A stretch of DNA of 64,000 nt from NCBI GenBank assembly GCA_964016885.1, contig OZ024744.1, forward strand, positions 125,116,001 to 125,180,000. Direction: 5' to 3'. Below, piece by piece: positions 1-64,000 of the stretch; position 1 is the first letter of the stretch; every line of letters starts with the position of its first letter. Origin of the DNA: Eledone cirrhosa. Lineage: Eukaryota. The notes beneath the pieces were generated by a model. It made no database searches. It was not told where the DNA came from and worked only from the letters and a program-made list of their open reading frames with translations. Made by a program: the position numbers and the translations under genes.

Positions 1-790
1 TTATTAATAACTGCATTGTTTCCTTCCAGGGACTATGTTGAAAAATAAACCTCATTTGGTCATTCCATGAGTGTATCTTGGTCTGCCTATGAACTTTTCA
101 GCTGACCCTATTCAGCATCAGTGAGCCCAAATGCCCCATTATCATCCTGGACACACTTTACCCCAACATCACAATTTGCCCTCACACACTGCCTCACAAT
201 CCTGAACATCTCATGTATTTCATCCTCACATCATAAAACCAACTGAAATTATATATTCTCTGCTTCCCTCCTTGCAAAGAATACTTCTTGCCTAGCTTCC
301 TGTAGTGTACCCTCCAGCTGCCTCCATTCTGCCATTATTCCATGCCTGTCTCTTGGCCTTAACTGTCTCATCTACCCTAGTGTTTCACCACCAAGATACT
401 CTCCTCTCTGAAGCCCTGCTCCAGCCACAGATCTAGTTTGACACCTTCAGCAAAGGTTCTTTAAGGAACTCCCACTGTTCCCCTATATTGTATGTTTCTA
501 TTTGTTCTTCCTTACTGTTGTAAAGATCAAACAAAATATCTCTAAATTTGGAACTGGCTGAGGGGTCCTTTAACTTCCATATCCTTCTCCTCCAAGTTGC
601 CCTCAGTCTTCAAGTTCATCTAAGTCTATGAAATCACTAACTACTGGGTTATGTTGGGAGGTGCATTCTTCCCCAGGGGGTGGGGATTGTGTGTTTACAA
701 ATGTCAATATCTCATCTTCTGGTGAGGATAAAAATCTGACTGGCATGCTCCTCTGACCAATAGGTGTTGAAGTGGTTGTCGGGTAAACGT
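1..790 (-). mobile_element. Degenerate RTE-clade LINE fragment (endonuclease-RT linker region)
   Basis: Continuous with the RT-bearing RTE remnant in the copies at 30050-31735 and 33701-35405. Interrupted by stops and frameshifts. Confidence 0.65.
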
Positions 791-823
791 TAAGACCCTC
801 TGATATACATATATATATATATA

Positions 824-1109
824 CTAGCAGTGGTACCCGGCGTTGCACGGGATAACGTATTTCGGAACGCGGGCCGCCATCTTCCACTTCAGCCGGTCGC
901 CCTAAAGTGTTGGCTATTCAGTCTACTTGAGGCCAGTTGGTGAGGGGGGGTAAAGCTTTCAGTGTGCTACTACCCTCACGGTCAAATAGAAAGGGAGAGG
1001 AAGAAAAGTCAGCGTTAATATCGTGCTACACGTTTGAAAGGTTGGATGACCTTAGAGTTCACCAGGGTGGGGGGTTCTAAAAGTATCTATCTTGGTATTT
1101 TATCTTAGA
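824..1109 (-). mobile_element. Short non-autonomous Helitron
   Basis: Minus strand ends CCCG-TGCAACGC-CGGG hairpin, taccactg, CTAG|T next to an (AT)n tract. Putative 5' end TCTAAGATAAAATACC at 1109 is less certain. Confidence 0.75.
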
Positions 1110-1149
1110 AGTAATCATTACAGAGTGTACTGGGTGTATTTTAGTGGGC

Positions 1150-1960
1150 AGTAATTCCATAAAGAACACAGTATAATCTGTGGACACAAGCCTTGCAGTG
1201 TGATTACAGGCAGGTTAATGGGAAAGATAGATTATATATGTGACATGATGTACATGAGAAGTGAGGACACAGACCACACATGAAATAGATTCCTACAACT
1301 GTCAGGGAGGCTCCCTAGAATTACAGATGACATATTTCAATATCTCGGTGATCAAGTTAGCAGTGGAGGAAGAATCTCTAAAAGTGTAATACCCAGGATA
1401 AGGACAGGCTGGAAGAAGTTTAGAGTACTGTTCCATCTGTTGACAACAAAGGGCTTCTCTCTCAGAATGGAGGCTAGACTGCTTGATACTTATGTGTGGT
1501 CTGCAATCTACACCCCAGCCATGCCCCTTCCACTACCACTCCTTAGCTATTTCTCTCCATTAATACTCCTCACATTTCAAGCAGTTTTCTCATCTCAATG
1601 AAAGAAAAATATTGGGCTCAAGAGAAGTCTTCAGTTATGCCATGGTGTGGCAACCTCCCTAGGGTTGGGCAGAGTGTAAATGAGAGTGAAATTAGGTATG
1701 AGAGGGATCATATGCAGTATACAAGAGAGTAGATTACATTGGTATGGTCATGTGATGGGTATAAAGGATGACAGCTGTATAAAAATGTGCTGGGCAATCA
1801 AAGTTGATGGAAGTTATGAAGGCGGAAGACCCAGGATGACCTGGGATGAGGTGATAAAAGATGACTTTGCACAATTGCAACTCTCAAAGACAATGACACA
1901 GGATAGAGATCTTGAGATGTATGCAGCAATACAGAAGGCCTGCTTTCCAATGTGCACGGA
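1150..1960 (+). mobile_element. Degenerate RTE LINE 3' portion
   Basis: ORF 1680-1991 has the RTE C-terminal motifs RLHWYGHVM and GRPRMTWDEVI. Upstream part is broken. Confidence 0.8.
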
Positions 1961-2044
1961 CTCAAACATACATCTAGTAGGCCCCTCCTAACCACTATAC
2001 TCCTTTCCAAACTCCCACACTCCCACTTCTGTACACACCACCTT

Positions 2045-2612
2045 TAGACTGTAAAGTGGTAGTGTACAAGTCACAACAAAAGCACCCAGTCCACTCTGTA
2101 AAGTTGATGTGTTGGTGTCATAACAAAAGGCACTCAGTCCACTCTGTAAAGAGGTTGTGTAAGTGTCACAACAAAGACATCTAGTCCACACTGTAAAGTG
2201 GTCATGTAGGTGTCACAACAAAAAGTACCAGTCATTATTGTAAAGTGGTTGTATAGGTGTCATAACAAAAAGCACCCAGTCGACACTGTAAAGTGGTTGT
2301 GTAGGTGTCAGAACCAAAAGCACCCAGTCCACCCTGTAAAGTGGTTGTGTAGGTGTCATGATAAAAAGCACCCAGTCCACACAGTAAAGTGGTCATGTAG
2401 GTGTCACTAAAAAAGCACCCAGTCTACTCTGTAAAGTGGTCATGTAGGTGTCATGACAAATAGCACCCAGTCCACCCTGTAAAGTGTTCATGTAGGTGTC
2501 ATGATGGAGAGTAACCAGTCCACAATGTAAAGTAGCCATGTAGCTGTCACAACAAAGCACCCAGTCCACACTGTAAAGTGGTCATGTAGGTGTCATTTCA
2601 AAAAGCACCCAG
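2045..2612 (+). repeat. ~48-bp minisatellite (~12 copies)
   Basis: Repeated aaaagcacccagtccacactgtaaagtggtcatgtaggtgtca. Related motif occurs inverted at 1120-1140, 12920-12940 and 17397-17540. Confidence 0.9.
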
Positions 2613-2690
2613 GTCCATGGCTTGGCCTGCTAACCGACGCTATACCCAAGTCGGTCGCCATGCTTTCCAGCATAGAGTTACGTCTCTTTA

Positions 2691-2812
2691 TGGTCTGAGT
2701 TCAAATCACGCCGAGGTTAACTTTGCCTTTCATCCTTACGGGGTCGATAAAATAAAGCACCAGTAATGTACTGGGGTCGATTTAATCGACTTTCCCCTCC
2801 TCTGCCAAATGA
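2691..2812 (+). mobile_element. tRNA-derived SINE fragment (cephalopod-type)
   Basis: B-box-like gagttcaaatc followed by aactttgcctttcatcc..ggggtcgataaaataaa..ccagt..ctggggtcgat. Related copies at 14335, 17750, 22340(-), 22628 and 29370(-). Confidence 0.8.
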
Positions 2813-2842
2813 CACACACATGCATGGTTCGGGGGAACCTAC

Positions 2843-2890
<48 letters not shown>

Positions 2891-3769
2891 GTAGGTCACT
2901 GGTTGAGTCGGTATTAACCACAGTAACTAAGGTACTCAATACATATTAGATATAGGTGTCTTTCTAATTGCTGGCCTTGTTCATAAGGTATACACAAGTA
3001 TGATGTGTGTCTGTTTAACTGTACGTGTGAAAACATCGCGAAATTGCGCCTTTTAATATTTGAATATAAACAGTTAAAAAATAATTATTTTAGTAATTTT
3101 TAAATATCGATAATGTGTATATAAATATTAGAAATCAATTTAATTAGTTCAGTAACATTACTCGGAGTTAAGATAAACCTTCATTTGAAGAAATTCGAGA
3201 TTTGACCAAATAAATAGATTATGTGATCAATAAAAAAAATATGTATACGCGCTGTGACGACGGGTTGCAGACAGTCAGGCATACAGACACATATTTTAAA
3301 GCGTGCGACGTTAAAAGTCTTACTCTCTCTCTTTTTAGATAGATAGACTTAATTAAAGCAGTTTCACTCTCTCTATATTTCATCAGCTCCCTCTCTCTTA
3401 AATTGAAAGATTCATTAAGGCTGAAATAATCTAAACAGTAACATCATTTTTCGCCAGCTCTAGCTTGCGTCCAGAGATATACACACACATATATATATAT
3501 TTTTTTTGTTATCGAGTTGAGCTTTGCCAAGCATAGAATTCCAAATTTGACCATCTCCACTGAAAATGTTCGTGAAATAGTCTTTAAGAAGCAATTTAAT
3601 TTTTTCCAACTGAAACTGTAAGTATTTTAAAATTTATTTCAACATGGTCTTAAAAGATTGTTGGCTTTTTTTAAATTCATAACTATTTACTATGAAATAT
3701 AAATTATTAAATCCAATTTATTTGATAACCATGATTTGATTTTATAATTACCTGAATCACGTTAACATG

Positions 3770-3814
<45 letters not shown>

Positions 3815-4074
3815 GTGTGTGTATATATATATATATATAATAATTGTTTCTACGTTACGCAGTGTATTACTGGTACTGTATTTTACGATATTAAATATTA
3901 AATATTAACTATTAGATATTAAATATTAAATATTAGATATTAGATATTAAATATTAAATATTAAATATGATATCCCTGAAATATATATAATGAAATAAAT
4001 ATGGTTTTATAAATGTAATTTCCATTTGTTTAATATCAAATATATATATATATATATATATGTATTTATGTATA

Positions 4075-4132
<58 letters not shown>

Positions 4133-4360
4133 GCAGACACAGACACAGAATATCGTATATATCACACACACACACAATTAAGACTTGACGTGTTGCAGAC
4201 AGCCAGACATACAGAGAGATATTTTAAAGCGTGCGACCTTACATTTCTTACTCTTTCTCTTATCAAAAGAGAAAGAGTAATGCTAACACTTACGTCTACT
4301 TCACGCTCTCTTGAACCGTTACAGAAATTGCATCACATCTAATTATAACTTTGTACGTTT

Positions 4361-4985
<625 letters not shown>

Positions 4986-5265
4986 TAATAATAATAATAA
5001 TAATGAAATGATTGTGTACAGTGCTCAGGTGCACTACAACTCATCAAAGGTGCATGTATAGTACATAGAATAATGTACAAATGTCAGGAAAATAAACAGT
5101 GTATGAGTCATGATATAATAACAATAACAATAATGAAATATTGTGCACAGTGCCCAGGTGCACCACAACCCATCAAAAAAGTGCATGTACAGTACATAGG
5201 GCAATGCACAAACATCAGTAAAATGAACAGTGCACACATGTGTGCATGTGTATGGAAGGGGCACA

Positions 5266-8031
5266 TCAGGTGTAGTTTTGGCGTATTTCGGGAAGCATGA
5301 GTGTCTTAAAGGATGCAGTGTCTCGGCAGCTAACAATTGACGCAGGCAGTTTGTTCCATGTTTCAGCAACTCTGAGCGTGAAAAAATGTCTGCGAAAGTC
5401 ATGGGAGCTGTGCTGTTTTCTTATCTTGTAGGCATGTCCACGTGTGTTAGACACATGGAGATCAAAGAGGCGCTCAGGGTTGCAGTTGGCGAGATGGTTA
5501 AAAACTTTGTGGGTATTCACCAAGTCCACTGCCAGATGTCGGAGCTTCAATGAATCCATGCCCAGGGAAGCAAGGCGTTCAGAGTATGGTAGGTGTCTGA
5601 TGGAGGGTATGCGCTTGGTTGCACGTCTCTGAACAGCTTCCAGGAGGTCAATGTTCCGAGCAAGATAGGGGTTCCAGACTGATGATGCGAATTCCAAGTG
5701 TGGTCGCACCATAGCTGTATACAGTTTTAAATAGATGGCTGGAGAGCGGCTAACAAAGGTCTTGCTGAGTGATGCCAAGACACCCTCGGCCTTCTTGACA
5801 ATCTTAGAGACATGCTTTGTCCAACGCAAATCGTTGCCGACAGTAATGCCCAGGTCACGTTCACAAGAGGACTTTTTGATGTCAGTGTTGTGGAGGGAGT
5901 ATGTGGACGCTGGATTTTTCCTTCCAAAATGCATGGTGGTACACTTGTCCACAGCCAGCTTCAGTTGCCAGTCTGTGATCCATTGCTGCATTGTGTCCAG
6001 GTCTGATTTTAGGAAAGAGTTGTAAATTTCAGGATCAGTCCTTTTGATTTCAAGGTACAGCTTGATGTCATCTGCATATTTTAGTACCGTGGCATTCTGT
6101 AAGTTGGCATCTATGTCATTAATATATGCCACAAACAAAAGAGGACCAAGAACAGATCCCTGTGGTACACCAGATGACATCTCATATGGTGAAGAATGCT
6201 GTCCTAGAACCGTGACTACTTTCCTTCGGCTGAGAATGAAGGATTTCAGCCAGTCGAAAAGATCATCCCTCACACCCATTGCAGAGAGTTTTGCCATAAG
6301 TCTTTTGTGTGGCACAGAATTAAAAGCCTTAGCAAAGTCAAGGTAAACAACATCCACCCATGAGCCGCTGTCAGTGATCCGGGTGATGTCCTCAAGGAAC
6401 TCGATAAGCTGATCACAGCAGCTGGAGTTAGGGATAAATCCAAACTGTGAGGGCCGGATGAGGCTGTGAGAGCTCCAGAAGTTCCAAAGTGTTTCTCTGA
6501 CACAGGATTCCATCAGTTTGGCCATACAGCTAGTAAGACTGACTGGACGATAGTTGACAGGTGACATGCGGTTGCCCTTTTTGAACAGGGGAATGACACT
6601 GGCAGTTTTCCACTGCTCCGGAGTAGCACCATTGCTGAGACAGTATTGAAAGAAAAAAGAAAGCTGGCGCAAAAGGAAATCCCCGCCACGTTTGAGAAGC
6701 AGGTATGTCACACCATCAAGACCAGGGGAGGCATAGTTGCGCTTATTCTTAAGGTGACGTCGCAACATTGCAGGTGTAAATTCCATAGTTGTTATGGAAT
6801 TTGATGTTAGAGATGGTGGAGATGGTACATTCTGGTTTTCAACAGTAAAAATACGTGCATAGCACTCAGCAATGAGTTCTGCGCATTCCTTGGGATCGTC
6901 AGTGATCTGGCTTGTGTGGGGATTGCGAAGAGGACCAACTGGAGAGTGAGGTCTCTGCTTTGAATGAACATATTTCCAGAACACCTTACTGTCAGGATTG
7001 GTTGCGATGCACTGTTCAAATTCAAGCACTGCCTTCTTTGTCACTTGCTTGAGATGGTTAGAAGATTTATTCCGCTTTTTTCTGTTGGCATCTGATCTAT
7101 GCAGTTTATATTCCCGTTCAGCGTTCCGACGTTCTTTCCTGGCAAGTCGGACTGCTGAAGTTTCCCAGATTGCACTTTTGGGGTGGTTATTTTTCCGCTT
7201 CCGTGTCACTGATGCTGCACACGCTATCCATATTGAGTCCAGGATGCTCTGGAGTATAGAGTTCACATCTCCAGAGTTATACATCTCATGCCAGTTTGGG
7301 CGCTGTAGCTCAGTGCAGTACAAGTTCCAATCCGCCCTCTTCCAATCAAAGCAAGCAGATTGGAGATGGCTCTGGTTTTTGTTGCTGCCCTCAAGTGCCA
7401 GATTGGCAATGATCATAGCATGATCAGAGTCGCCTAGAGGTTCCTCAGTAGTACAACTGATAACCACTTCAGGAGTAGTGGTGAAGATCAGGTCCAAAGT
7501 GTTGTCACCTCTTGTTGGAGAGGTGACTACTTGTGACCAGTTTGAGTCCAGCACTAGTTCAAGGAAATCGTTTGCACCCTGTGGCCAACGAAAGGTTTCC
7601 CAATCGATCTCAGGATGATTGAAGTCACCTGCAATAAACACATAAGTGGCTGTTTTCTTGGCAGCAACTCTGAGGATATCGCAAAGCTGTGTGTCCTGAT
7701 GGTAGTTTGGGGGGCGATAAACAACACCAAGCAGAAGTGTTGACATGGTCATACGTATGTCACAGAAAAAAACTTCTTCCTGTGATTCGTTCAAATCAAC
7801 GCAAGGAATTACCGAAAAGTTTGAACGAACGTAGACCATCACACCACCACCACGGCGGTTAATGCGGTCCTTGCGGAAAAGGTTGTACCCAGTAATGGTG
7901 AAAACCCCATCACAGAGTAAGGAATGTGCCCATGTTTCCGTGACTGTGATGAAGTCAGGGTCGATGCTTCTGACGTAGGATTCGAACAGATGTATCTTGT
8001 TGCATAAACTGCGAGCATTTAAGGACAACAA
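5266..8031 (-). CDS. CR1-clade ORF2: AP-endonuclease plus reverse transcriptase (921 aa)
   Basis: APE motifs NARS, TETW, YRPP, GDFN, SDH. RT motifs YRPVSLTS, QFGF, YLDFAKAF, GVPQGS, YADD. CR1-type C-terminus TRGH..FFTLRVAETWNKLP. The annotated start is TTG and the frame is open further upstream. Confidence 0.95.
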   Translation of the reverse strand: MLSLNARSLCNKIHLFESYVRSIDPDFITVTETWAHSLLCDGVFTITGYNLFRKDRINRRGGGVMVYVRSNFSVIPCVDLNESQEEVFFCDIRMTMSTLLLGVVYRPPNYHQDTQLCDILRVAAKKTATYVFIAGDFNHPEIDWETFRWPQGANDFLELVLDSNWSQVVTSPTRGDNTLDLIFTTTPEVVISCTTEEPLGDSDHAMIIANLALEGSNKNQSHLQSACFDWKRADWNLYCTELQRPNWHEMYNSGDVNSILQSILDSIWIACAASVTRKRKNNHPKSAIWETSAVRLARKERRNAEREYKLHRSDANRKKRNKSSNHLKQVTKKAVLEFEQCIATNPDSKVFWKYVHSKQRPHSPVGPLRNPHTSQITDDPKECAELIAECYARIFTVENQNVPSPPSLTSNSITTMEFTPAMLRRHLKNKRNYASPGLDGVTYLLLKRGGDFLLRQLSFFFQYCLSNGATPEQWKTASVIPLFKKGNRMSPVNYRPVSLTSCMAKLMESCVRETLWNFWSSHSLIRPSQFGFIPNSSCCDQLIEFLEDITRITDSGSWVDVVYLDFAKAFNSVPHKRLMAKLSAMGVRDDLFDWLKSFILSRRKVVTVLGQHSSPYEMSSGVPQGSVLGPLLFVAYINDIDANLQNATVLKYADDIKLYLEIKRTDPEIYNSFLKSDLDTMQQWITDWQLKLAVDKCTTMHFGRKNPASTYSLHNTDIKKSSCERDLGITVGNDLRWTKHVSKIVKKAEGVLASLSKTFVSRSPAIYLKLYTAMVRPHLEFASSVWNPYLARNIDLLEAVQRRATKRIPSIRHLPYSERLASLGMDSLKLRHLAVDLVNTHKVFNHLANCNPERLFDLHVSNTRGHAYKIRKQHSSHDFRRHFFTLRVAETWNKLPASIVSCRDTASFKTLMLPEIRQNYT

Positions 8032-8087
8032 TTTGTACCCTGCTCGCAGTCTATGATGGTGTGTAGAGGGTGGCAGGTTGTTCTGGT

Positions 8088-8241
8088 TTAGTTTCCCAGA
8101 GTTGTAGCAGTTTTTACATTGCCAGTTATTGTGGGTAGATCACACTCAGACCAGCTGGTATCTCTCTTCCACGTTTCACCCGCCTTGACAAACCTCCAGA
8201 TCTGCCCATCATCACGCAGACTGAAACTTTCATCTTGTGCT
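8088..8241 (-). pseudogene. Probable C-terminal remnant of CR1 ORF1
   Basis: Non-repetitive ~50 codons (TAQDESF...TTLGN*) ending just upstream of ORF2 and truncated by the microsatellite. Confidence 0.55.
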
Positions 8242-8305
8242 GTATATATATATATATACACACGTGTGTGTGTATTTATGTATATATATATATATACACA
8301 CACAC

Positions 8306-8347
<42 letters not shown>

Positions 8348-8462
8348 GTGTGTGTGTGTATATATATTTATATATATATACACACACGTGTGTGTATATA
8401 TATATATATATATACACGTGTGTGTGTATTTATATATATATATATATACACACACACGTGTG

Positions 8463-8493
<31 letters not shown>

Positions 8494-8512
8494 GTGTGTG
8501 TATATATATATA
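8242..8512. repeat. Compound (TA)n-(CA)nCG(TG)n microsatellite, 5' flank of CR1
   Basis: Directly visible. Confidence 0.95.
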
Positions 8513-8881
8513 TCTGTCTCTCTCCCTGTCTCTCACTCTCCCTCTATCCCCCCTCTCTCTCTCTGTCTCTCTCTCCCCCCCCCTCTCTCTCTCTAGTAGT
8601 AGAGAGAGACAAAGAGAGAGAGATATAAACGTATAACCCTAACCAAACCCTAACCCAACCCTAACCCCAACCCTAACCCTAACCTAACCCTAACCCATCT
8701 CTCTCTCTCTCTCACCCCCTCTCTCTCTCTCTAGTAGTAGAGAGAGAGACAAAGAGAGAGAGAGATATAAACGTATAACCCTAACCCAACCCTAACCTCT
8801 CTCTCTCTTCTCTCTCTCTCTCTCCCCTCTCTCTCTCTATTCCCCCCTCTCTATTTCCCCCCCCCCTCTCTCTCTAGTAGT

Positions 8882-8912
<31 letters not shown>

Positions 8913-8997
8913 TATAAACGTATAACCCTAACCCAACCCTAACCCTAACCCAACCCCAACCCTAACCCATCTCTCTCTCTCTCTCTCTCTCTCTCTT
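8513..8997. repeat. Three compound units of (CT)n-AGTAGT-(AG)n plus telomere-like (CCCTAA/CCCAA)n
   Basis: ctctctagtagtagagagag..gatataaacgtataaccctaacc is repeated at ~8590, ~8728 and ~8870. Confidence 0.9.
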
Positions 8998-9134
8998 TGT
9001 TTTTAACATTGTTTTGTTTTTCTTTTCTTTTCTTATTCAGATGACAAACGGCAGAGGATACAACAGAAGAAAAGAACAAAGATAATTATTATTATTATTA
9101 CTATTATTATTTGTTTTATTATAATCAAAATATG

Positions 9135-9485
9135 CTGTTAGTTAGATCTGCATTGCGTACATTTTATATAATTTATGCCAGTTCCTTTTCTGCATATCGA
9201 ACATGGCCATTTCCCTGACGGAATAGAGTTTTGTCCTCTTTCGTGACACAAAGTACAGCCAGCGGCATCATTGCGGACAGACTTAATCCCGAATTGCACT
9301 GACACACTGCCTCGCAATACGGAACACCGCACGTCTTTGATCTTCTTCCCGTCGATCAGCCTCCTTGCCATGCTAAGTACACCTGACGTCTAGCTTCTCT
9401 CTTAGCGGCGGCTTTATATTCTTCTCTACTCCCACTAATTTTCCAAGCATTCCATGCTAGCCTTTAGTCTCCAATGGCCCGATCT
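9135..9485 (-). mobile_element. RTE LINE fragments (zinc-finger-like region and 3' end)
   Basis: SGKWPCSICRKG motif in ORF 9138-9371. Duplicated at 11040-11415. Confidence 0.7.
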
Positions 9486-9599
9486 ACCGTGCTGTCCCAC
9501 CACCATGTCACTCTCTGTCTGGTTGGAACTCTGATCCAGCCACAAGTTTAATCAGTAGCCTGCAATAAGTTGTCACATAAGAAAATCGAGTTCTCATGT

Positions 9600-10180
9600 A
9601 TGTCATACGACTGTGAATCGTCTTCTTTTTCGTCATACACATATTGAAGGGCTTTCCTAAATTTCTATTTTAGTGAAATCTCTTTTAGCTTCCAGACCTT
9701 TCTTTTTTCCACATCTTCCTGTATGTCTCAATCATACCTGGAGCTGTCCAACATGACCATTGAAATCCCCTGCTAGCATAACGATGTCTCCGTCCTGTCA
9801 TTGTGGCTGTTTGTAAAAATTGCTTGTAAATGAAGTCTTTCTTTTCTTTACCTAGCAGAAGCAATTAACACTAACCCAACTGTAACACTAACCCTAACAC
9901 TAACTTATGCAGGCCTAGGTAAAGACAAGAAAGATAAAACAAGGAGTGATGCTTCTTGAATTTTGTGATGCAAGTGTTTTAACCATTTGCAAAACCAACT
10001 TCCACAAACCTGCCTCACTGCCGCCTAATAACCTACAAATCAGGCAAGCACAGAAGCCGGATTTCTCGGTAGTTAGGCAGCGAGACAGACAGATGGGGTG
10101 TGAAGTACCAGGGTGTGCCCCGGGGAGGAATGTTTCCCACAGCGTGGGTTGGTTGTTGGTGATGTCTCGGTTATCTTGAG
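9600..10180. mobile_element. RTE endonuclease-domain scraps in both orientations
   Basis: Minus strand has a GDFNGHVG-like segment at ~9750-9775. Plus strand has LLEFCDASVLTICKTNFHK at 9946. Confidence 0.6.
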
Positions 10181-10575
10181 ACGGAGTGAGACGTGCAGGA
10201 ATACTCTCACGGAATCGCCAAATGAGGTTTATTTTTCAACATAGTCCCTGGAATGAAACAATGTGGTTATTAAGAAGAATTGAAATTAATGTAAGATTTC
10301 ACAGATCTATGATCAATCCTTCACAGTCAGCTTACAAAGTTTTCAGCCAAACCTTGTGTATTTCCAACATTTCAAACCCTATCTAGGACTACATTATCTA
10401 ATGTACAGTACAGTAGTTAGTATTAGTGGCTATCAGACATAGTGTATCTAAATGCAACATTTTTAACATTGTTTTTTTTTTCTTTTCTTTTCTTTTCTTA
10501 TTCAGATGACAGACGGCAGAGGATACAATAGAAGAAAAGAACAATGATAATTATTATTATTATTATTGTTGTTAT

Positions 10576-10969
10576 TCCTTGAATCTCAGTCATTGATGTT
10601 GGTTAACTGGAAAGTCCGTTGGAATGAATATCAAGCCACTACCTGCAGCCTCAGATATTCAGGACGTATCGGAGGGTTCTTGCTGTTCCAAGCAAGCATG
10701 CCTTTTGAAGCGTTCCAAAAAGCGTGAAGGGGCCGATTTTCTTTAACCATCCCTGGAAACTTTTGGAGATGGACAAAAAACTGGAACACAATAGACCTGA
10801 CCTGGTGGTTGTGGACAAAGAAAAAAGATCGTGTCTGATTGTGGATGTGGCCTGCCCGTTCAACACGAGAGTGCAAGAGAAGGAGAGGGAGAAAATTAAC
10901 CGATACCAGGACCTAAAGTGGGAGGTGAAAAGGATTTGGAACTTCCATGAAGTCAAAGTGATCCCGATT
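10576..10969 (-). mobile_element. R4/Dong-like RLE non-LTR retrotransposon 3' end, 5'-truncated and 5'-inverted, within (TAA)n
   Basis: Minus strand reads ISKSFQGWLKKIG..LQKACLLGTARTLRYVLNI* plus 3' UTR. Plus strand reads HNRPDLVVVDKE..CLIVDVACPF..EKINRYQDL (PD-(D/E)xK RLE). (ATT)n on both sides. Confidence 0.85.
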
Positions 10970-10970
10970 G

Positions 10971-11011
<41 letters not shown>

Positions 11012-11039
11012 TATTATTTGTTTTATTATAATCAAAATA

Positions 11040-11570
11040 TGCTGTTAGTTAGATCTGCATTGTGTACATTTTATATAATTTATGCCAGTTCCTTTTCTAC
11101 ATATCGAACATGGCCATTTCCCTGACGGAATAGAGTTTTGTCCTCTTTTCTACTCATCAACACTCATTCGTGACACAAAGTACAGCCAGCGGCATCATTG
11201 CGGACAGACTTAATCCTGATTTGCACTGACACACTGCCTCGCAATACGGAACACCGCACGTCTTTGATCTTCTTCCCGTCGATCAGCCTCCTTGCCATGC
11301 AAAGTACACCTGACGTCTAGCTTCTCTCTTAGCGGCGGCGGCTGTATATTCTTCTCTACTCCCACTAATTTTCCAAGCATTCCATGCTAGTCTTTAGTCT
11401 CCAATGGCCCGATCTACAGTTTCTGTCTCAACTCGTCTATGCTTGGTCGTTCCCGCACATTGACATTGCACATCCAACGGAGCATGCTTGCTTCATTTCT
11501 CTCCAGCCGTCGCATGTCCTCTGCAGTTGCTGCCCGTGTCTCACTACCATGCAGCATCGCGCATCTAAAC
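11040..11570 (-). mobile_element. RTE LINE 3' fragment
   Basis: AMLHGSET..EDMRRLERNEASMLRWMCNV in ORF 11414-11710. Confidence 0.8.
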
Positions 11571-11574
11571 CTGG

Positions 11575-12445: not shown

Positions 12446-12523
12446 GAAGAGATATTGTCCATGGATATCGGGAATTTTACCCGCCCTAGATAGATAGATA
12501 GATAGGGATGTATGTATGTATGT

Positions 12524-12565
<42 letters not shown>

Positions 12566-12944: not shown

Positions 12945-13025
<81 letters not shown>

Positions 13026-16270: not shown

Positions 16271-16308
<38 letters not shown>

Positions 16309-50900: not shown

Positions 50901-50938
<38 letters not shown>

Positions 50939-51957: not shown

Positions 51958-52485
51958 TATAAAATATATTGTTATCATGACTGTCTTTATTATTTAAATT
52001 ACCTCTGTCTATTTACAGATTTTACAGAGTGTACTGGGTGCTTTTATGATGGGAGCAGCAACTCTATACGATTTTACAGAGTGTACTTGGTGCTTTTATC
52101 ATGGCACATGGCAGCAGCAGCAGCAGCAACTACGATTTTACAGAGTGTACTTGGTGCTTTTTACTCTGACATCAGCACTGAGGAAGTTGTCATATTTTCA
52201 GCTAAATTAATGAGTAGAAAAACCAAGTTTCTGCTACAAAAAATTCTCAGATTCAAGGGAGACATTCAGTTTAAGTATGGTATACTGTCACTAAGGCAGC
52301 AAATTGGCAGAGTCGCTAGAATATCAGATAGCATTCTTTACATTATTTGTTTCAGCTCTCTGTTCTCTCAATTCAAATCCTGCTCAGGTCAACTTTGCCT
52401 TTCATCCATACAAAATAGATTAATAAAAGTACCAGTGTATTACTGGGGTCAATTCTTCTTCTAACTCTTCTGCACTTCCATTCTC

Positions 52486-52522
<37 letters not shown>

Positions 52523-53082
52523 GCTTCTTTAGAACACATCTGCTGTATTCAGACCTGGAGCGGAGATGGGCTCCACCAAGTTTTAAAAATTGCCCTTTAA
52601 GCGCTGTATGTCAATATGGTGCCCCTATGATTCCCTCCCTCAGGAGTTATGGGACCATAGATACTGTCAATTGTAAAGAATAACAGAGATATTCAGTGCT
52701 AGTGTGGTGTTCTGTCAGTTGTGGAGATTGATGAATCTAAACAGAAATATCAACAGCACTTTTCATTTCTGAGTAACACATTTGTTACCAAGTGCTGCAT
52801 GGCTGGAATGAAAATCAGTGCTGTGAAAACCAAGACATTCATCCTCTCAAGGAAGCTTGTGCAGTGCACTCTACATGTAAATGGAGTCCCACTGAAGCAG
52901 GTAGAAAAGTTCATGTATCTCGAAGCTGTGTTCACGAGTGATGACAGAGACGGCAAAGGCACAACACACAACAGAAGAAAAGAACAATGACAATTATTAT
53001 TATTATTATTATTATTATTTGTTTTATTAGTTTTATTATAATAAAAATTGTGCTGTTAGTTTGCTTGCTATACCATCATGTA

Positions 53083-53175
53083 CCCTAACCCTAAACCTAA
53101 CCCCAACTCCAACTCTGACCCTAAACCTAACCCCAACCCCAACCCCAACCCTAACCCTAACCCTAACCCTAACCC
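53083..53175 (+). repeat. Interstitial telomeric tract, unit B copy
   Basis: (CCCTAA/CCCCAA)n. Confidence 0.9.
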
Positions 53176-54105
53176 ACGATAGAAGACGTTCGTTACCGCT
53201 GGAGCAACGCAAATTACTCCTCGGTTGACGCCAAAAACGAACGCCTTCTCGACGGCTAGCCGCATTTCGTGATCCGCCTTTCGATTGCGCTTCCGTCGCG
53301 GAAAAAGAATTGCCTTTATAGGCCGCCGCCGCCCGACCGGACCCACGATAGAAGACGTTCGTTACCGCTGGCGCAACGCAAATTACTCCTCGGTTGACGC
53401 CAAAAACGAACGCCTTCTCGACGGCTAGCCGCATTTCGTGATCCGCCTTTCGATTGCGCTTCCGTCGCGGAAAAAGAATTGCCTTTATAGGCCGCCGCCG
53501 CCGCCCGACCGGACCCACGATAGAAGACGTTCGTTACCGCTGGAGCAACGCAAATTACTCCTCGGTTGACGCCAAAAACGAACGCCTTCTCGACGGCTAG
53601 CCGCATTTCGTGATCCGCCTTTCGATTGCGCTTCCGTCGCGGAAAAAGAATTGCCTTTATAGGCCGCCGCCGCCGCCCGACCGGACCCACGATAGAAGAC
53701 GTTCGTTACCGCTGGAGCAACGCAAATTACTCCTCGGTTGACGCCAAAAACGAACGCCTTCTCGACGGCTAGCCGCATTTCGTGATCCGCCTTTCGATTG
53801 CGCTTCCGTCGCGGAAAAAGAATTGCCTTTATAGGCCGCCGCCGCCGCCCGACCGGACCCACGATAGAAGACGTTCGTTACCGCTGGAGCAACGCAAATT
53901 ACTCCTCGGTTGACGCCAAAAACGAACGCCTTCTCGACGGCTAGCCGCATTTCGTGATCCGCCTTTCGATTGCGCTTCCGTCGCGGAAAAAGAATTGCCT
54001 TTATAGGCCGCCGCCGCCGCCCGACCGGACCCACGATAGAAGACGTTCGTTACCGCTGGAGCAACGCAAATTACTCCTCGGTTGACGCCAAAAACGAACG
54101 CCTTC
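53173..54105 (+). repeat. 169/172-bp spacer-like array (5 full units plus a partial)
   Basis: Periods are 169 then 172 x4. Confidence 0.9.
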
Positions 54106-54462: not shown

Positions 54463-54647
54463 TACCTGGGTGATCCTGCCAGTAGTCATATGCTTGTCTC
54501 AAAGCTTAAGCCATGCAAGTGGAAGTTCATGCCGTAAACGAAAATGGTGAAACCGCGAATGGCTCAGGAACCGGATCTAATCCTCGGGACCGTATTCCTC
54601 ACCGCGAGGAGAGGATAACTGTGGCAATTCTAGAGCTAATACATGCA
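54463..54647 (+). pseudogene. 18S rRNA: 18S rRNA 5' fragment, unit B copy
   Basis: Same sequence as 20176-20360. Confidence 0.95.
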
Positions 54648-54651
54648 ATTG

Positions 54652-57600
54652 AGATCGGAGAGGGAGCGATCCGTCTGCTTGATTCCGATAACGAACGAGA
54701 CATTCGTATCCGAAAGAACGTTTGTCTGGAAACTGGTGCAGTCAGTGAGTCGAAAAAAAAATATCTCGGTGGTAGTGGCAAATATTCGAACGAGACATTC
54801 GTATGCGAAAGAACGTTTGTCGGTGGTAGTAGCAAATATTCGAACGAGACATTCGTATGCGAAATAACGTTTGTCTGGAAGTGGCGATCCATGCCCGGTG
54901 GATAGTTGGTTCCGGGTTTTACTATGATTGTTGCAAAACAGAAACTTAAAGGGATTGACAGAATTTGCGATTACGGAGAGGGGGCGATCCGTCTGCTTGA
55001 TTCCGATAACGAACGAGACATTCGTATCCGAAAGAACGTTTGTCTGGAAACTGGTGAGTCAGTGAGTCGAAAAAAAAATATCTCGGTGGTAGTAGCAAAT
55101 ATTCGAACGAGACATTCGTATGCGAAAGAACGTTTGTCGGTGGTAGTAGCAAATATTCGAACGAGACATTCGTATGCGAAAGAACGTTTGTCGGTGGTAG
55201 TAGCAAATATTCGAACGAGACATTCGTATGCGAAAGAACGTTTGTCGGTGGTAGTAGCAAATATTCGAACGAGACATTCGTATGCGAAAGAACGTTTGTC
55301 TGGAAGTGGCGATCCATGCCCGGTGGATAGTTGGTTCCGGGTTTTACTATGATTGTTGCAAAACAGAAACTTAAAGGGATTGACAGAATTTGCGATTACG
55401 GAGAGGGGGCGATCCGTCTGCTTGATTCCGATAACGAACGAGACATTCGTATCCGAAAGAACGTTTGTCTGGAAACTGGTGAGTCAGTGAGTCGAAAAAA
55501 AAATATCTCGGTGGTAGTAGCAAATATTCGAACGAGACATTCGTATGCGAAAGAACGTTTGTCGGTGGTAGTAGCAAATATTCGAACGAGACATTCGTAT
55601 GCGAAAGAACGTTTGTCTGGAAGTGGCGATCCATGCTCGGTGGATAGTTGGTTCCGGGTTTTACTATGATTGTTGCAAAACAGAAACTTAAAAGGATTGA
55701 CAGAATTTGCGATTCCGGAGAGGGGGCGATCCGTCTGCTTGATTCCGATAACGAACGAGACATTCGTATCCGAAAGAACGTTTGTCTGGAAACTGGTGAG
55801 TCGAAAAAAAAATATCTCGGTGGTAGTAGCAAATATTCGTATGCGAAAGAAAAGATCTCGGTGGTAGTAGCAAATATTCGAACGAGACATTCGTAGGCGA
55901 AAGAAAAATATCTCGGTGGTAGTAGCAAATATTCGAACGAGACATTCGTATGCGAAAGAACGTTTGTCGGTGGTAGTAGCAAATATTCGAACGAGACATT
56001 CGTATGCGAAAGAACGTTTGTCGGTGGTAGTAGCAAATATTCGAACGAGACATTCGTATGCGAAAGAACGTTTGTCTGGAAGTGGCGATCCATGCCCGGT
56101 GGATAGTTGGTTCCGGGTTTTACTATGATTGTTGCAAAACAGAAACTTAAAGGGATTGACAGAATTTGCGATTCCGGAGAGAGGGCGATCCGTCTGCTTG
56201 ATTCCGATAACGAACGAGACATTCGTATCCGAAAGAACGTTTGTCTGGAAACTGGTGAGTCAGTGAGTCGAAAAAAAAATATCTCGGTGGTAGTAGCAAA
56301 TATTCGTATGCGAAAGAAAAGATCTCGGTGGTAGTAGCAAATATTCGAACGAGACATTCGTAGGCGAAAGAAAAATATCTCGGTGGTAGTAGCAAATATT
56401 CGAACGAGACATTCGTATGCGAAAGAACGTTTGTCGGTGGTAGTAGCAAATATTCGAACGAGACATTCGTATGCGAAAGAACGTTTGTCGGTGGTAGTAG
56501 CAAATATTCGAACGAGACATTCGTATGCGAAAGAACGTTTGTCTGGAAGTGGCGATCCATGCCCGGTGGATAGTTGGTTCCGGGTTTTACTATGATTGTT
56601 GCAAAACAAAAACTTAAAGGGATTGACAGAATTTGCGATTCCGGAGAGAGGGCGATCCGTCTGCTTGATTCCGATAACGAACGAGACATTCGTATCCGAA
56701 AGAACGTTTGTCTGGAAACTGGTGAGTCAGTGAGTCGAAAAAAAAATATCTCGGTGGTAGTAGCAAATATTCGAACGAGACATTCGTATGCGAAAGAACG
56801 TTTGTCGGTGGTAGTAGCAAATATTCGAACGAGACATTCGTATGCGAAAGAACGTTTGTCGGTGGTAGTAGCAAATATTCGAACGAGACATTCGTATGCG
56901 AAAGAACGTTTGTCTGGAAGTGGCGATCCATGCCCGGTGGATAGTTGGTTCCGGGTTTTACTATGATTGTTGCAAAACAAAAACTTAAAGGGATTGACAG
57001 AATTTGCGATTCCGGAGAGAGGGCGATCCGTCTGCTTGATTCCGATAACGAACGAGACATTCGTATCCGAAAGAACGTTTGTCTGGAAACTGGTGAGTCA
57101 GTGAGTCGAAAAAAAAATATCTCGGTGGTAGTAGCAAATATTCGAACGAGACATTCGTATGCGAAAGAACGTTTGTCGGTGGTAGTAGCAAATATTCGAA
57201 CGAGACATTCGTATGCGAAAGAACGTTTGTCTGGAAGTGGCGATCCATGCCCGGTGGATAGTTGGTTCCGGGTTTTACTATGATTGTTGCAAAACAGAAA
57301 CTTAAAGGGATTGACAGAATTTGCGATTACGGAGAGGGGGCGATCCGTCTGCTTGATTCCGATAACGAACGAGACATTCGTATCCGAAAGAACGTTTGTC
57401 TGGAAACTGGTGAGTCAGTGAGTCGAAAAAAAAATATCTCGGTGGTAGTGGCAAATATTCGAACGAGACATTCGTATGCGAAAGAACGTTTGTCGGTGGT
57501 AGTAGCAAATATTCGAACGAGACATTCGTATGCGAAAGAACGTTTGTCTGGAAGTGGCGATCCATGCCCGGTGGATAGTTGGTTCCGGGTTTTACTATGA

Positions 57601-60600
57601 TTGTTGCAAAACAGAAACTTAAAGGGATTGACAGAATTTGCGATTACGGAGAGGGGGCGATCCGTCTGCTTGATTCCGATAACGAACGAGACATTCGTAT
57701 CCGAAAGAACGTTTGTCTGGAAACTGGTGAGTCAGTGAGTCGAAAAAAAAATATCTCGGTGGTAGTAGCAAATATTCGAACGAGACATTCGTATGCGAAA
57801 GAACGTTTGTCGGTGGTAGTAGCAAATATTCGAACGAGACATTCGTATGCGAAAGAACGTTTGTCTGGAAGTGGCGATCCATGCCCGGTGGATAGTTGGT
57901 TCCGGGTTTTACTATGATTGTTGCAAAACAGAAACTTAAAGGGATTGACAGAATTTGCGATTCCGGAGAGGGGGCGATCCGTCTGCTTGATTCCGATAAC
58001 GAACGAGACATTCGTATCCGAAAGAACGTTTGTCTGGAAACTGGTGAGTCAGTGAGTCGAAAAAAAAAATATCTCGGTGGTAGTAGCAAATATTCGAACG
58101 AGACATTCGTATGCGAAAGAACGTTTGTCGGTGGTAGTAGCAAATATTCGAACGAGACATTCGTATGCGAAAGAACGTTTGTCTGGAAGTGGCGATCCAT
58201 GCTCGGTGGATAGTTGGTTCCGGGTTTTACTATGATTGTTGCAAAACAGAAACTTAAAGGGATTGACAGAATTTGCGATTCCGGAGAGGGGGCGATCCGT
58301 CTGCTTGATTCCGATAACGAACGAGACATTCGTATCCGAAAGAACGTTTGTCTGGAAACTGGTGAGTCAGTGAGTCGAAAAAAAAATATCTCGGTGGTAG
58401 TAGCAAATATTCGAACGAGACATTCGTATGCGAAAGAACGTTTGTCTGGAAGTGGCGATCCATGCCCGGTGGATAGTTGGTTCCGGGTTTTACTATGATT
58501 GTTGCAAAACAGAAACTTAAAGGGATTGACAGAATTTGCGATTCCGGAGAGGGGGCGATCCGTCTGCTTGATTCCGATAACGAACGAGACATTCGTATCC
58601 GAAAGAACGTTTGTCTGGAAACTGGTGAGTCGAAAAAAAAATATCTCGGTGGTAGTAGCAAATATTCGTATGCGAAAGAAAAGATCTCGGTGGTAGTAGC
58701 AAATATTCGAACGAGACATTCGTAGGCGAAAGAAAAATATCTCGGTGGTAGTAGCAAATATTCGAACGAGACATTCGTATGCGAAAGAACGTTTGTCGGT
58801 GGTAGTAGCAAATATTCGAACGAGACATTCGTATGCGAAAGAACGTTTGTCTGGAAGTGGCGATCCATGCCCGGTGGATAGTTGGTTCCGGGTTTTACTA
58901 TGATTGTTGCAAAACAGAAACTTAAAGGGATTGACAGAATTTGCGATTCCGGAGAGAGGGCGATCCGTCTGCTTGATTCCGATAACGAACGAGACATTCG
59001 TATCCGAAAGAACGTTTGTCTGGAAACTGGTGAGTCAGTGAGTCGAAAAAAAAATATCTCGGTGGTAGTAGCAAATATTCGAACGAGACATTCGTATGCG
59101 AAAGAACGTTTGTCGGTGGTAGTAGCAAATATTCGAACGAGACATTCGTATGCGAAAGAACGTTTGTCTGGAAGTGGCGATCCATGCTCGGTGGATAGTT
59201 GGTTCCGGGTTTTACTATGATTGTTGCAAAACAGAAACTTAAAGGGATTGACAGAATTTGCGATTCCGGAGAGGGGGCGATCCGTCTGCTTGATTCCGAT
59301 AACGAACGAGACATTCGTATCCGAAAGAACGTTTGTCTGGAAACTGGTGAGTCAGTGAGTCGAAAAAAAAATATCTCGGTGGTAGTAGCAAATATTCGAA
59401 CGAGACATTCGTATGCGAAAGAACGTTTGTCGGTGGTAGTAGCAAATATTCGAACGAGACATTCGTATGCGAAAGAACGTTTGTCTGGAAGTGGCGATCC
59501 ATGCCCGGTGGATAGTTGGTTCCGGGTTTTACTATGATTGTTGCAAAACAGAAACTTAAAGGGATTGACAGAATTTGCGATTCCGGAGAGGGGGCGATCC
59601 GTCTGCTTGATTCCGATAACGAACGAGACATTCGTATCCGAAAGAACGTTTGTCTGGAAACTGGTGAGTCAGTGAGTCGAAAAAAAAATATCTCGGTGGT
59701 AGTAGCAAATATTCGAACGAGACATTCGTATGCGAAAGAACGTTTGTCGGTGGTAGTAGCAAATATTGGAACGAGACATTCGTATGCGAAAGAACGTTTG
59801 TCTGGAAGTGGCGATCCATGCCCGGTGGATAGTTGGTTCCGGGTTTTACTATGATTGTTGCAAAACAGAAACTTAAAGGGATTGACAGAATTTGCGATTC
59901 CGGAGAGGGGGCGATCCGTCTGCTTGATTCCGATAACGAACGAGACATTCGTATCCGAAAGAACGTTTGTCTGGAAACTGGTGAGTCAGTGAGTCGAAAA
60001 AAAAATATCTCGGTGGTAGTAGCAAATATTCGAACGAGACATTCGTATGCGAAAGAACGTTTGTCGGTGGTAGTAGCAAATATTCGAACGAGACATTCGT
60101 ATGCGAAAGAACGTTTGTCGGTGGTAGTAGCAAATATTCGAACGAGACATTCGTATGCGAAAGAACGTTTGTCTGGAAGTGGCGATCCATGCCCGGTGGA
60201 TAGTTGGTTCCGGGTTTTACTATGACTGTTGCAAAACAGAAACTTAAAGGGATTGACAGAATTTGCGATTCCGGAGAGGGGGCGATCCGTCTGCTTGATT
60301 CCGATAACGAACGAGACATTCGTATCCGAAAGAACGTTTGTCTGGAAACTGGTGAGTCAGTGAGTCGAAAAAAAAAATATCTCGGTGGTAGTAGCAAATA
60401 TTCGAACGAGACATTCGTATGCGAAAGAACGTTTGTCGGTGGTAGTAGCAAATATTCGAACGAGACATTCGTATGCGAAAGAACGTTTGTCTGGAAACTG
60501 GTGAGTCAGTGAGTCGAAAAAAAAATATCTCGGTGGTAGTAGCAAATATTCGAACGAGACATTCGTATGCGAAAGAACGTTTGTCGGTGGTAGTAGCAAA

Positions 60601-62186
60601 TATTCGAACGAGACATTCGTATGCGAAAGAACGTTTGTCTGGAAGTGGCGATCCATGCTCGGTGGATAGTTGGTTCCGGGTTTTACTATGATTGTTGCAA
60701 AACAGAAACTTAAAGGGGTTGACAGAATTTGCGATTTCGGAGAGGGGGCGATCCGTCTGCTTGATTCCGATAACGAACGAGACATTCGTATCCGAAAGAA
60801 CGTTTGTCTGGAAACTGGTGAGTCAGTGAGTCGAAAAAAAAATATCTCGGTGGTAGTAGCAAATATTCGAACGAGACATTCGTATGCGAAAGAACGTTTG
60901 TCGGTGGTAGTAGCAAATATTCGAACGAGACATTCGTATGCGAAAGAACGTTTGTCTGGAAGTGGCGATCCATGCTCGGTGGATAGTTGGTTCCGGGTTT
61001 TACTATGATTGTTGCAAAACAGAAACTTAAAGGGATTGACAGAATTTGCGATTCCGGAGAGGGGGCGATCCGTCTGCTTGATTCCGATAACGAACGAGAC
61101 ATTCGTATCCGAAAGAACGTTTGTCTGGAAACTGGTGAGTCAGTGAGTCGAAAAAAAAATATCTCGGTGGTAGTAGCAAATATTCGAACGAGACATTCGT
61201 ATGCGAAAGAACGTTTGTCGGTGGTAGTAGCAAATATTCGAACGAGACATTCGTATGCGAAAGAACGTTTGTCTGGAAGTGGCGATCCATGCCCGGTGGA
61301 TAGTTGGTTCCGGGTTTTACTATGATTGTTGCAAAACAGAAACTTAAAGGGATTGACAGAATTTGCGATTCCGGAGAGGGGGCGATCCGTCTGCTTGATT
61401 CCGATAACGAACGAGACATTCGTATCCGAAAGAACGTTTGTCTGGAAACTGGTGAGTCAGTGAGTCGAAAAAAAAAATATCTCGGTGGTAGTAGCAAATA
61501 TTCGAACGAGACATTCGTATGCGAAAGAACGTTTGTCGGTGGTAGTAGCAAATATTCGAACGAGACATTCGTATGCGAAAGAACGTTTGTCTGGAAACTG
61601 GTGAGTCAGTGAGTCGAAAAAAAAATATCTCGGTGGTAGTAGCAAATATTCGAACGAGACATTCGTATGCGAAAGAACGTTTGTCGGTGGTAGTAGCAAA
61701 TATTCGAACGAGACATTCGTATGCGAAAGAACGTTTGTCTGGAAGTGGCGATCCATGCTCGGTGGATAGTTGGTTCCGGGTTTTACTATGATTGTTGCAA
61801 AACAGAAACTTAAAGGGATTGACAGAATTTGCGATTCCGGAGAGGGGGCGATCCGTCTGCTTGATTCCGATAACGAACGAGACATTCGTATCCGAAAGAA
61901 CGTTTGTCTGGAAACTGGTGAGTCAGTGAGTCGAAAAAAAAATATCTCGGTGGTAGTAGCAAATATTCGTATGCGAAAGAAAAGATCTCGGTGGTAGTAG
62001 CAAATATTCGAACGAGACATTCGTATGCGAAAGAAAAATATCTCGGTGGTAGTAGCAAATATTCGAACGAGACATTCGTATTCGAAAGAACGTTTGTCTG
62101 GAAGTTGCGATCCATGCCCGGTGGATAGTTGGTTCCGGGCTTTACTATGATTGTTGCAAAACAGAAACTTAAAGGAATTGACAGAA
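54652..62186 (+). repeat. Chimeric 18S/28S-derived satellite, ~21 monomers (modal 317 bp, range 263-467 bp)
   Basis: Landmark ttggttccggg recurs at 54906, 55331, 55648 ... 61770 and ~62130. Length varies mostly by the number of 54-bp subrepeats. Confidence 0.93.
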
Positions 62187-62215
62187 TTTTCGAATCGACA
62201 TCAACTCGGCTACGG

Positions 62216-62573
62216 CTATCCCGTCGAGTACGAGAGTATCGCGGGATCAGAGCAACGGTTTGCTAGGCTGCCTCTGAGCGATAACGGCTGAACGCCTCCT
62301 CTAAGCCGGAACCCTAGCCGGACCCGAGTTGTTTTTCGACAAGCGTCTCGACCTTCTTAAGGCCCATGCCTTAGTTTGGCGATTGCCGTCCGTTCGCCGA
62401 CGGCGGCAGCGTCAGCGGAAATGCCATTCTGTGACGACTACGACGATTCGTCGTCGTCGTCGTCCATTCGATTTCCTGAAAGAGATAGAGACTAAAGTGA
62501 TCAAATTGTTCGGAGTTACGTGCTTAGTAGAGCAGCTACCACACTGCAATCTATTGAGAGTTTTCTGACGAAC
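62216..62573 (+). pseudogene. 28S rRNA: 28S rRNA 3'-terminal fragment, unit B copy
   Basis: Same sequence as 21118-21475. Confidence 0.88.
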
Positions 62574-64000
62574 GATACAATCCGCCCACGTGGCGCCAGA
62601 AAGGGAGAAGAAAAGAAAAGTTAGACGCCGCCGATCGATCGGTTCGTTGTTTTACGTGTACACAGCTTGTGTGTGTGTCTGTATGTGATACAAGCCGCCT
62701 ATCCGTCTTCCAAGTAAGTTTTGTGTGTAGACTGCGGAAAGAAATCCAATCCGCCGTCTAGGCGGTTCTGCCGCCGACCCATACTTTTGCGAGTCGCTCC
62801 CGGGAAAGACAGGCGGCAAGACGGCGTGTATACACGACGCCTTCCGTCTTCCGCCTCGAACCCGGGCAAACGTTCCTTTATTCGTCCACGCCTTCCCGCT
62901 TCGATCGCGAGAAAGTAATCAATCTGTTTTGTGTGTGTGTCTGTGTGTGATACAAATTTGTTTTCTTAATTTGATAACCATGAATTGTTTCAACACCGGC
63001 CCTTTTAAGGGCCACTTATATTTTCAATAATCAGTTTAAATGGGTTGCACCGTAGCCACTTGGTAATACACTGCAAATCTCCCGTCAATCTATGAAGGTT
63101 TTGTAGTAGATTAGATCAAAACACAATCAGCAAGACAGTAATGGAATGAATAATATAAACATTTGTTTATAATTAAAGCCTTAAGATGTCCCTCCCTCCC
63201 TCCCTTCCTCCCTTCCTTCCTTCCTTCCTTCCTTCCTTACGATATACACTTTAATAACATTGAAACTTATTTAATAAGTTTAAATTTTAAACACTTTTTA
63301 TTCAGACGTACCGCGATAAGTAACTAGATATGTTCTAACGAATAATCCGCGATGTGGCGAGGATTACCGCGATAGGAAATTAGATACGTTCCAAAGAAAT
63401 ATCCGCGAAAAGTGAACCGCGATATAGCGGGTTCACCACCCAGTGTATTACTGGTACTTTATTTTATCGACCCCCATAAGGATGAAAGGCAAAGTTAACT
63501 GTGCAATAACAAAGGGAGATAACCTCGTCTTTTTTTTTTTACGGAGTTATTTCCCTTTAAATTTTATCTATTACTTATGATGATACAATTTAATCAGTTC
63601 TTAGCTGTCGAGACACTGCATCCTTTAAAACCTCCATGGAACAAGCTACCTGCAACAGTTGTTAGCTGTCGAGACACTGCATCTTTTAAAACCTCCATGG
63701 AACAAACTACCTGCATCAGTTGTTAGGGTCTGAGTTCAAATCACGCCGAGGAGGTTAACTTTGCCTTTCATCCTTACGGGGTCGGTCGGAAAACGAACCA
63801 TTCCCGGTTCGCTTTCGAAGCGGGTTTCCGAAAACAGCGCTTCTCTCGACCGGGCCCGTCGTCCGCTCGGCGGTGGTTTTCATCGTCCCAGGCACGGCTA
63901 ACAGGCGGAGACGGGACAAACGCGCGTGTTCCTTTTTTTATCAGCCGCAGCGCCGTTCGTATATATGCTTAGGTTGTTTTTTTTTTAAATATCCTAAGTT

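Follow-up and report, generated by a model that had tools for sequence, protein, structure and literature searches.

A hollowed-out ribosomal DNA pseudogene with an internal satellite in a near-identical tandem repeat of Eledone cirrhosa

What becomes of a ribosomal RNA gene unit when its coding function is lost, but the repeats around it stay almost free of differences? This question is raised by a 64,000-nucleotide stretch of the Eledone cirrhosa genome (assembly GCA_964016885.1, contig OZ024744.1, positions 125,116,001 to 125,180,000, forward strand; hereafter the window), in which the first-pass annotation, made from the letters alone, had recognized a homogenised macro-repeat of about 35-41 kb behaving like an array of ribosomal DNA (rDNA). 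The comparisons given below show that the locus is an rDNA pseudogene carrying an internal rDNA-derived satellite, array-like in its layout and in the turnover of its sub-repeats, and that it fails as a functional 45S rDNA array.

The window, which contains no N gap, is filled by a head-to-tail pair of near-identical blocks of approximately 34 and 41 kb. Most of each block is spacer:

1..18549, no strand: spacer, first macro-copy, with simple repeats, minisatellites, LINE (long interspersed nuclear element) and SINE-like (short interspersed nuclear element) fragments; twin at 34617-53171
34617..53171, no strand: spacer, second macro-copy

Self-BLAST pairs 1-19474 with 34617-54105 at 99.7% and 20369-22903 with 61372-64000, while the BLAST span 19573-20460 is identical to 53860-54747. 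At the base level, eight substitutions and 12 gap openings (two of them cancelling each other) separate 1-18700 from 34617-53322, and one substitution and one gap separate 21000-22903 from 62098-64000. Summed over 21,492 aligned bases this gives nine substitutions (0.04%), three of which border microsatellites, along with about 11 real indels, almost all of which lie within microsatellites or homopolymers. Perfect microsatellite tracts are equally long in both macro-copies in 30 of 34 cases, and a compound (TA)/(CA)/(TG) tract of 626 bp (4362-4987 and 38980-39605) shows no difference at all. The period is 34,616 bp at the left end, 34,287 bp from 18S start to 18S start and 41,098 bp on the 3' side, in keeping with the 35-41 kb first given; the stretch 22904-34616 is seen once as a macro-copy. 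Both the macro-repeat and the near-identity of its long (TA)n compound tracts, as originally proposed, are thus borne out, and the copies are either very young or recently homogenised. Two head-to-tail units of high identity are in this respect what a 45S array would offer.

The rDNA origin is apparent from the elements found at the 3' end of the spacer, all of which lie on one strand and follow each other as in rDNA: telomere-type repeats come first and then CpG-rich repeats of 169 bp, after which follow the 18S 5' end, a mosaic and the 28S 3' end (ETS, external transcribed spacer; o/e, observed/expected ratio):

18460..18553, forward: (TAACCC)n tract directly abutting the 169-bp repeats; twin at 53082-53175
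18550..19818, forward: 169/172-bp CpG-rich repeats of unit 1, 7.5 copies, putative spacer/promoter repeats
53172..54105, forward: 169/172-bp repeats of unit 2, 5.4 copies
19819..20175, forward: CpG-rich leader, putative 5' ETS remnant by its position and CpG o/e of 1.87
20176..20364, forward: 18S rRNA 5' end (model positions ~1-178), ~190 nt; twin from 54463
20365..21113, forward: mosaic array of unit 1, two sub-repeats of scrambled 18S and 28S snippets plus unassigned pieces
21114..21476, forward: 28S rRNA 3' end, ~360 nt, collinear with model positions 3016-3391; twin at ~62212-62574
21477..21880, forward: CpG-rich trailer, putative 3' ETS remnant, CpG o/e 1.49
54463..62574, forward: collapsed rRNA gene of unit 2, with the same ends and 21 mosaic sub-repeats of 263-467 bp

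Under relaxed thresholds of the Rfam small subunit (SSU) models the 18S piece starts at 20179 (E 2e-7), and two eukaryotic 18S genes (L001 and L002) match it over ~190 nt with 75% identity and E values as low as 1e-32. These two reference genes (L001 1-1078, reverse strand; L002 1646-2018, forward strand) are situated on contigs in bacterial genome bins, probably as a result of binning contamination. At the other end, positions 3016-3153 of the Rfam large subunit (LSU) model are matched at 21114-21226 (E 1e-7), and a match to 28S 3322-3391, weak by itself (E 2.1), follows at the expected distance downstream. The CpG o/e is 1.5-1.9 in the rDNA-like parts (0.83 in the short 18S 5' piece) as against 0.21-0.67 in five spacer stretches. 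As in 45S arrays, the sub-repeats upstream of the transcribed unit vary in number (7.5 versus 5.4 copies), and their length variants are arranged as 4+3 in unit 1 and 1+4 in unit 2, so that the units differ in both directions. Each 169-bp repeat (12 copies) contains a TATAGG-type motif, which we take to resemble an initiation site, although a putative one; the naming of promoter repeats and transcribed spacers is an inference from position and CpG content.

The coding capacity of this unit is lost. At the Rfam gathering score no rRNA gene is found in the window, the sole match being a histone stem-loop in each unit. Only about 290 of the 1,831 SSU model positions and about 390 of the 3,401 LSU positions are accounted for, corresponding to a loss of ~85-90% of 18S and 28S, and the sarcin-ricin loop in the retained 28S 3' end is altered relative to both the Rfam consensus and Escherichia coli. 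No 5.8S gene was detected in the window at the gathering score, nor at E values up to 1 within 19700-22300. In a scan of the whole window by E value, the matches listed (150 of 374) are dominated by (TA)n hits to microRNA models, which were discarded as low-complexity noise. Significant rRNA homology in rDNA order, combined with a gene span of 1.3 kb in unit 1 and a scrambled interior, characterizes the locus as an rDNA pseudogene, in agreement with the initial description of an rDNA-derived repeat lacking functional rRNA genes.

The interior of the pseudogene has been turned into a nested satellite, in which a 54-bp inner repeat is contained within monomers of 263-467 bp, present in two copies in unit 1 and 21 in unit 2. 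The snippets recognized correspond to 18S ~378-395, ~1118-1160 and, by a weak match, ~1298-1333, and to a 28S piece one mismatch away from the LR7 primer site, a site located at LSU 1433-1449 by PMC3338786. Comparing 16 mosaic pieces with the 18S gene of L001 and with E. coli 16S and 23S gave five matches at P<0.05 in 48 tests, one of which (a 28S piece against 18S) was judged spurious. Relative to rRNA the order of the snippets jumps both forwards and backwards, and the 18S 384-395 piece passes into the 18S ~1298 piece across a short motif common to both source regions, which suggests microhomology-guided template jumps. An origin as reverse-transcribed rRNA chimeras is disfavoured, since both the repeats upstream and the CpG-rich flanks follow the rDNA order, which rather favours deletion at the DNA level.

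The two versions of the gene are closely related, as that of unit 1 consists of three collinear exact blocks of that of unit 2 (314, 392 and 595 nt), and two deletions therefore explain the former. The 21 monomers of unit 2 differ from each other by a mean of 1.3% over an 88-nt segment, far above the divergence of the macro-units, which identifies the long array as the older state. A base conserved in rRNA (Rfam; E. coli 16S 907-924) is retained solely by the last sub-repeat of each unit, while the inner copies (20 in unit 2 and one in unit 1) carry a changed base; in both units the first monomer bears a variant of its own. Inner copies that are homogenised while the edge copies stay distinct form the pattern expected from unequal exchange, and it is here, within the unit and among the inner sub-repeats, that homogenisation is shown. 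The array accordingly consists of homogenised tandem monomers of rDNA sequence, as rDNA-derived satellites do, with three modules weakly or not assigned. The hollow gene spans 8.1 kb in unit 2, and the difference between ~35 and ~41 kb resides in the collapsed gene (two versus 21 sub-repeats), not in the spacer. Length variation of the kind first invoked for rDNA spacers is real with regard to sub-repeat number, but its main part is found within the rRNA gene.

Neither the ~317-bp monomer (z -1.29) nor the 169-bp repeat (z -0.72) shows any excess of folding structure, leaving a role as structured RNA unsupported. The most amplified 54-bp repeat (20478-20502 and copies) holds a 28S stretch nearly identical to sha-miR-716b, listed as a small RNA in PMC5003961. 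At 20691-20720 an 18S hairpin near model positions 1127-1138 is still paired although its bases have changed, which suggests a source rRNA gene that was functional and already evolving fast. No match was obtained from phage records, and plasmid records yielded two short 18S-like matches, which were left unused.

Taken at about even chances of being right, the locus represents a neutral, hollowed-out rDNA pseudogene in a young and probably small tandem array. In an animal 45S rDNA unit, deletions and template jumps would have removed most of the coding region but spared the upstream repeats, the flanks on either side and both ends of the gene, and the leftover snippets would have formed a unit of ~317 bp that expanded by unequal exchange into the nested satellite. 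The pseudogene, together with ~33 kb of repeat-rich, subtelomere-like host DNA, would then have been copied in tandem, probably more than once, giving a small array situated beyond the working rDNA locus or at its margin. Here unequal exchange may keep shifting the sub-repeat numbers, while the pseudogene, yielding no usable rRNA, would persist as a neutral passenger.

Several observations weigh against this explanation. With ~1.85 units in view, concerted evolution of the macro-unit is indistinguishable from a recent duplication. Several mosaic pieces are weak (Rfam E 0.39-5.6), modules D and F have no match in the references and module C a marginal one only. Of the six substitutions that lie outside simple repeats, three are found within 636 bp of each other (post hoc P = 0.046), a clustering which is a marginal and possible sign of conversion from other copies. 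The evidence for repeated rounds of copying is largely derived from one structure at the junction of the units:

29463..36529, forward: 3.4-kb segment present twice (29463-32856 and 33114-36529) on either side of a 257-bp filler; third partial copy at 1-1913

At each of the three variable sites the in-register copies share a state not found in the middle copy, which weakly hints at an earlier in-register round of duplication; this argument comprises three sites only, with a chance of 1 in 27 for that branch and 1 in 9 for any.

The closest competitor, possible although unlikely, is a single recent two-copy tandem duplication of a block already containing the pseudogene, followed by local slippage of sub-repeats and with no continuing homogenisation of the macro-unit. 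The divergence of 0.04% and the derivation of the unit 1 array from that of unit 2 without any new mutation are as expected from such an event, and so is the behaviour of the one long reading frame in the spacer:

5266..8139, reverse: CR1-like LINE open reading frame 2 (ORF2), open over 957 codons, with endonuclease and reverse transcriptase; twin at 39884-42757, also open

The two ORF2 copies differ at three positions, all of them amino-acid changes, and each copy has one derived change at a conserved residue (P312T in unit 1, L217V in unit 2), which fits neutral drift after any recent split. However, the three-site grouping of the junction segment points to an earlier duplication, and at least four sub-repeat length events have occurred between the units despite so few substitutions.

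It is improbable that the units are defective members of the true nucleolar organiser, in which the 33 kb would be the real spacer, shared with intact genes and subject to concerted evolution. In its favour, the upstream repeats, the leader and the trailer have all kept their places, the hollow gene of unit 2 is near the normal coding length at 8.1 kb, and an older relic of the upstream repeats is found about 7 kb further up, listed here with degenerate telomere-type tracts, which speak against this reading:

8634..8969, forward: degenerate (TAACCC)n tracts among (TC)/(AG) repeats; twin at 43255-43587
11578..12444, forward: older, rearranged relic of the 169-bp repeat and ETS-like region, 77-100% identical by block

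This relic, which is preceded by a short telomere-like motif, indicates that rDNA sequence has long been resident at the locus. According to PMC11373518, units measure 35-45 kb in mammals, with spacers reaching 25-30 kb, which speaks for this reading, and 8-20 kb in most eukaryotes, which speaks against it. The spacer, which spans 32,986 bp, is moreover mostly CpG-poor, contains telomere-type tracts and a young LINE, and no intact gene is present within the 64 kb. Nothing shows that this stretch is the true intergenic spacer of the species.

Related to this is the idea, in our view doubtful, of the hollow units as defective-interfering copies, which with promoter repeats and ends kept and the rRNA-snippet satellite regrown to roughly the length of a normal gene (8.1 kb) would spread by concerted evolution in or beside a nucleolar organiser having a mammal-sized 33-kb spacer in an invertebrate. 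Such units might also remain able to bind polymerase I factors and give rise to junk or small RNAs.

An assembly artefact, with two alleles set in tandem or the short array of unit 1 being a collapse, is very unlikely even if most indels are of the homopolymer or dinucleotide kind typical of long-read error and misassembly is common in tandem arrays, as the sequence is free of gaps, the junction has the structure of a 3.4-kb duplication around a unique filler of 257 bp, the variants contained in the two sub-repeat arrays are not the same and a divergence of 0.04% would be low between alleles in an outbred invertebrate.

Besides the elements already mentioned, the spacer holds minisatellites, SINE-like pieces, LINE fragments and a 5.4-kb palindromic block. 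Motifs of the apurinic-type endonuclease and reverse transcriptase domains of the LINE ORF2 (PF03372, PF14529, PF00078) are kept in an 11-sequence alignment, and the label CR1-like is based on domain layout and on named bird, turtle and Hydra matches. A full ORF1 and 5' promoter are lacking, the sequence becoming (TA)n ~100 bp upstream of the ORF2 frame, and the element is apparently 5'-truncated; a short frame that overlaps ORF2 and ends at 8088 could represent the last part of ORF1. LINE 3'-end pieces recur as a 61-bp tandem repeat at 22497-22628. The transposon debris is, as first stated, almost base-identical between units, but it is not all dead, given the open ORF2, and its RTE and CRE labels are unconfirmed. 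Indeed, none of seven short fragments matched a Pfam family, homologue searches gave none, and the Atlas returned unnamed eukaryotic clusters only; the RTE, CRE and Helitron-like labels are presumed from motif fit, unconfirmed by tools. The Pfam-negative fragments include 10709-10972 (forward) and 13487-13880 (reverse), presumably recalling R4-type or CRE-type restriction-like endonucleases. A 77-bp element at 824, 28660, 31767 and 35440 ends in a hairpin and CTAG beside (TA)n, and is assumed by us to resemble a Helitron 3' end. The window contains no tRNA genes, and the SINE-like pieces are thus without a recognised tRNA head. The SINE and repeat content would fit an octopus-like mollusc, an assignment that the searches did not confirm. 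Two further features are:

22898..28540, no strand: 16-bp repeats followed by ~3.4 copies of a palindromic unit of 1,583 bp that contains 196-bp sub-repeats; present once in the window
21895..21939, forward: histone 3'-UTR (untranslated region) stem-loop, Rfam RF00032, 36.6 bits (gathering 34); twin at 62993-63037

The 1,583-bp unit (23129-28540) has near-perfect inverted arms of 480 bp, 27 bp apart, and a CpG o/e of 1.16. The stem-loop sits ~420 nt past the end of 28S, and a purine-rich element downstream of it is not obvious; the locus was not accepted as a histone gene cluster, six histone motifs giving no match in six frames, and the portion of PMC12210499 covered contains nothing on a histone-rDNA link.

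Among known systems, subtelomeric segmental duplications resemble the locus in their tens-of-kb size, >99% identity and internal telomere-type tracts. With eukaryotic 45S arrays it has in common the head-to-tail arrangement of units, the gene order, sub-repeats ahead of the 18S end and a high inter-unit identity, but most of 18S and 28S is absent, 5.8S was not found, the middle is scrambled and the spacer is of mammalian size. Like the human array-edge and orphan rDNA pseudogenes, it is non-functional, outside purifying selection and, as is sometimes the case there, arranged as two in tandem; however, according to PMC5381670 the human ones are near full length or simply truncated and differ from the canonical unit by 3-28 variants per kb, whereas here the interior is deleted, scrambled and satellite-amplified and neighbours differ by ~0.4 substitutions per kb. 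Such pseudogenes are sometimes abundant, according to PMC10462631. Tandem repeats made from rDNA pieces are also known from Vicia (spacer-related), Plantago (B chromosome) and Physalaemus (5S-derived), which to judge by titles cited in PMC7598501 derive from spacer or 5S, while the present satellite joins 18S and 28S coding sequence in a chimera and still lies between its own gene ends. Mobile-element remains beside rRNA likewise occur in transposon-laden rDNA spacers and rDNA-bearing elements such as SINE28 (PMC10319768 and PMC10946416), but here there is no sign of rRNA pieces travelling inside a transposon and the rDNA flanks are kept. No report of an 18S/28S-mosaic unit with both ends kept was found in a literature coverage without most subscription papers or supplements, by which absence from print is not established.

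Pseudogenes of rDNA are usually described as decaying after leaving the array. The one described here kept its ends, made its interior a satellite and spread a change at a conserved site through its inner copies. It shows rDNA that goes on recombining once its function is gone, and thereby sets the recombination responsible for homogenising rDNA apart from the selection acting on rRNA. Such loci can mislead primer, fluorescence in situ hybridization and copy-number assays of rRNA, as illustrated by the 29 near-matches to the LR7 primer site in unit 2 alone. Should the macro-unit prove a two-copy duplication, it would be a curiosity; if it is multi-copy, it would offer a test of whether promoter repeats alone hold a unit in the homogenising pool, and of unit-length constraint outside mammals.

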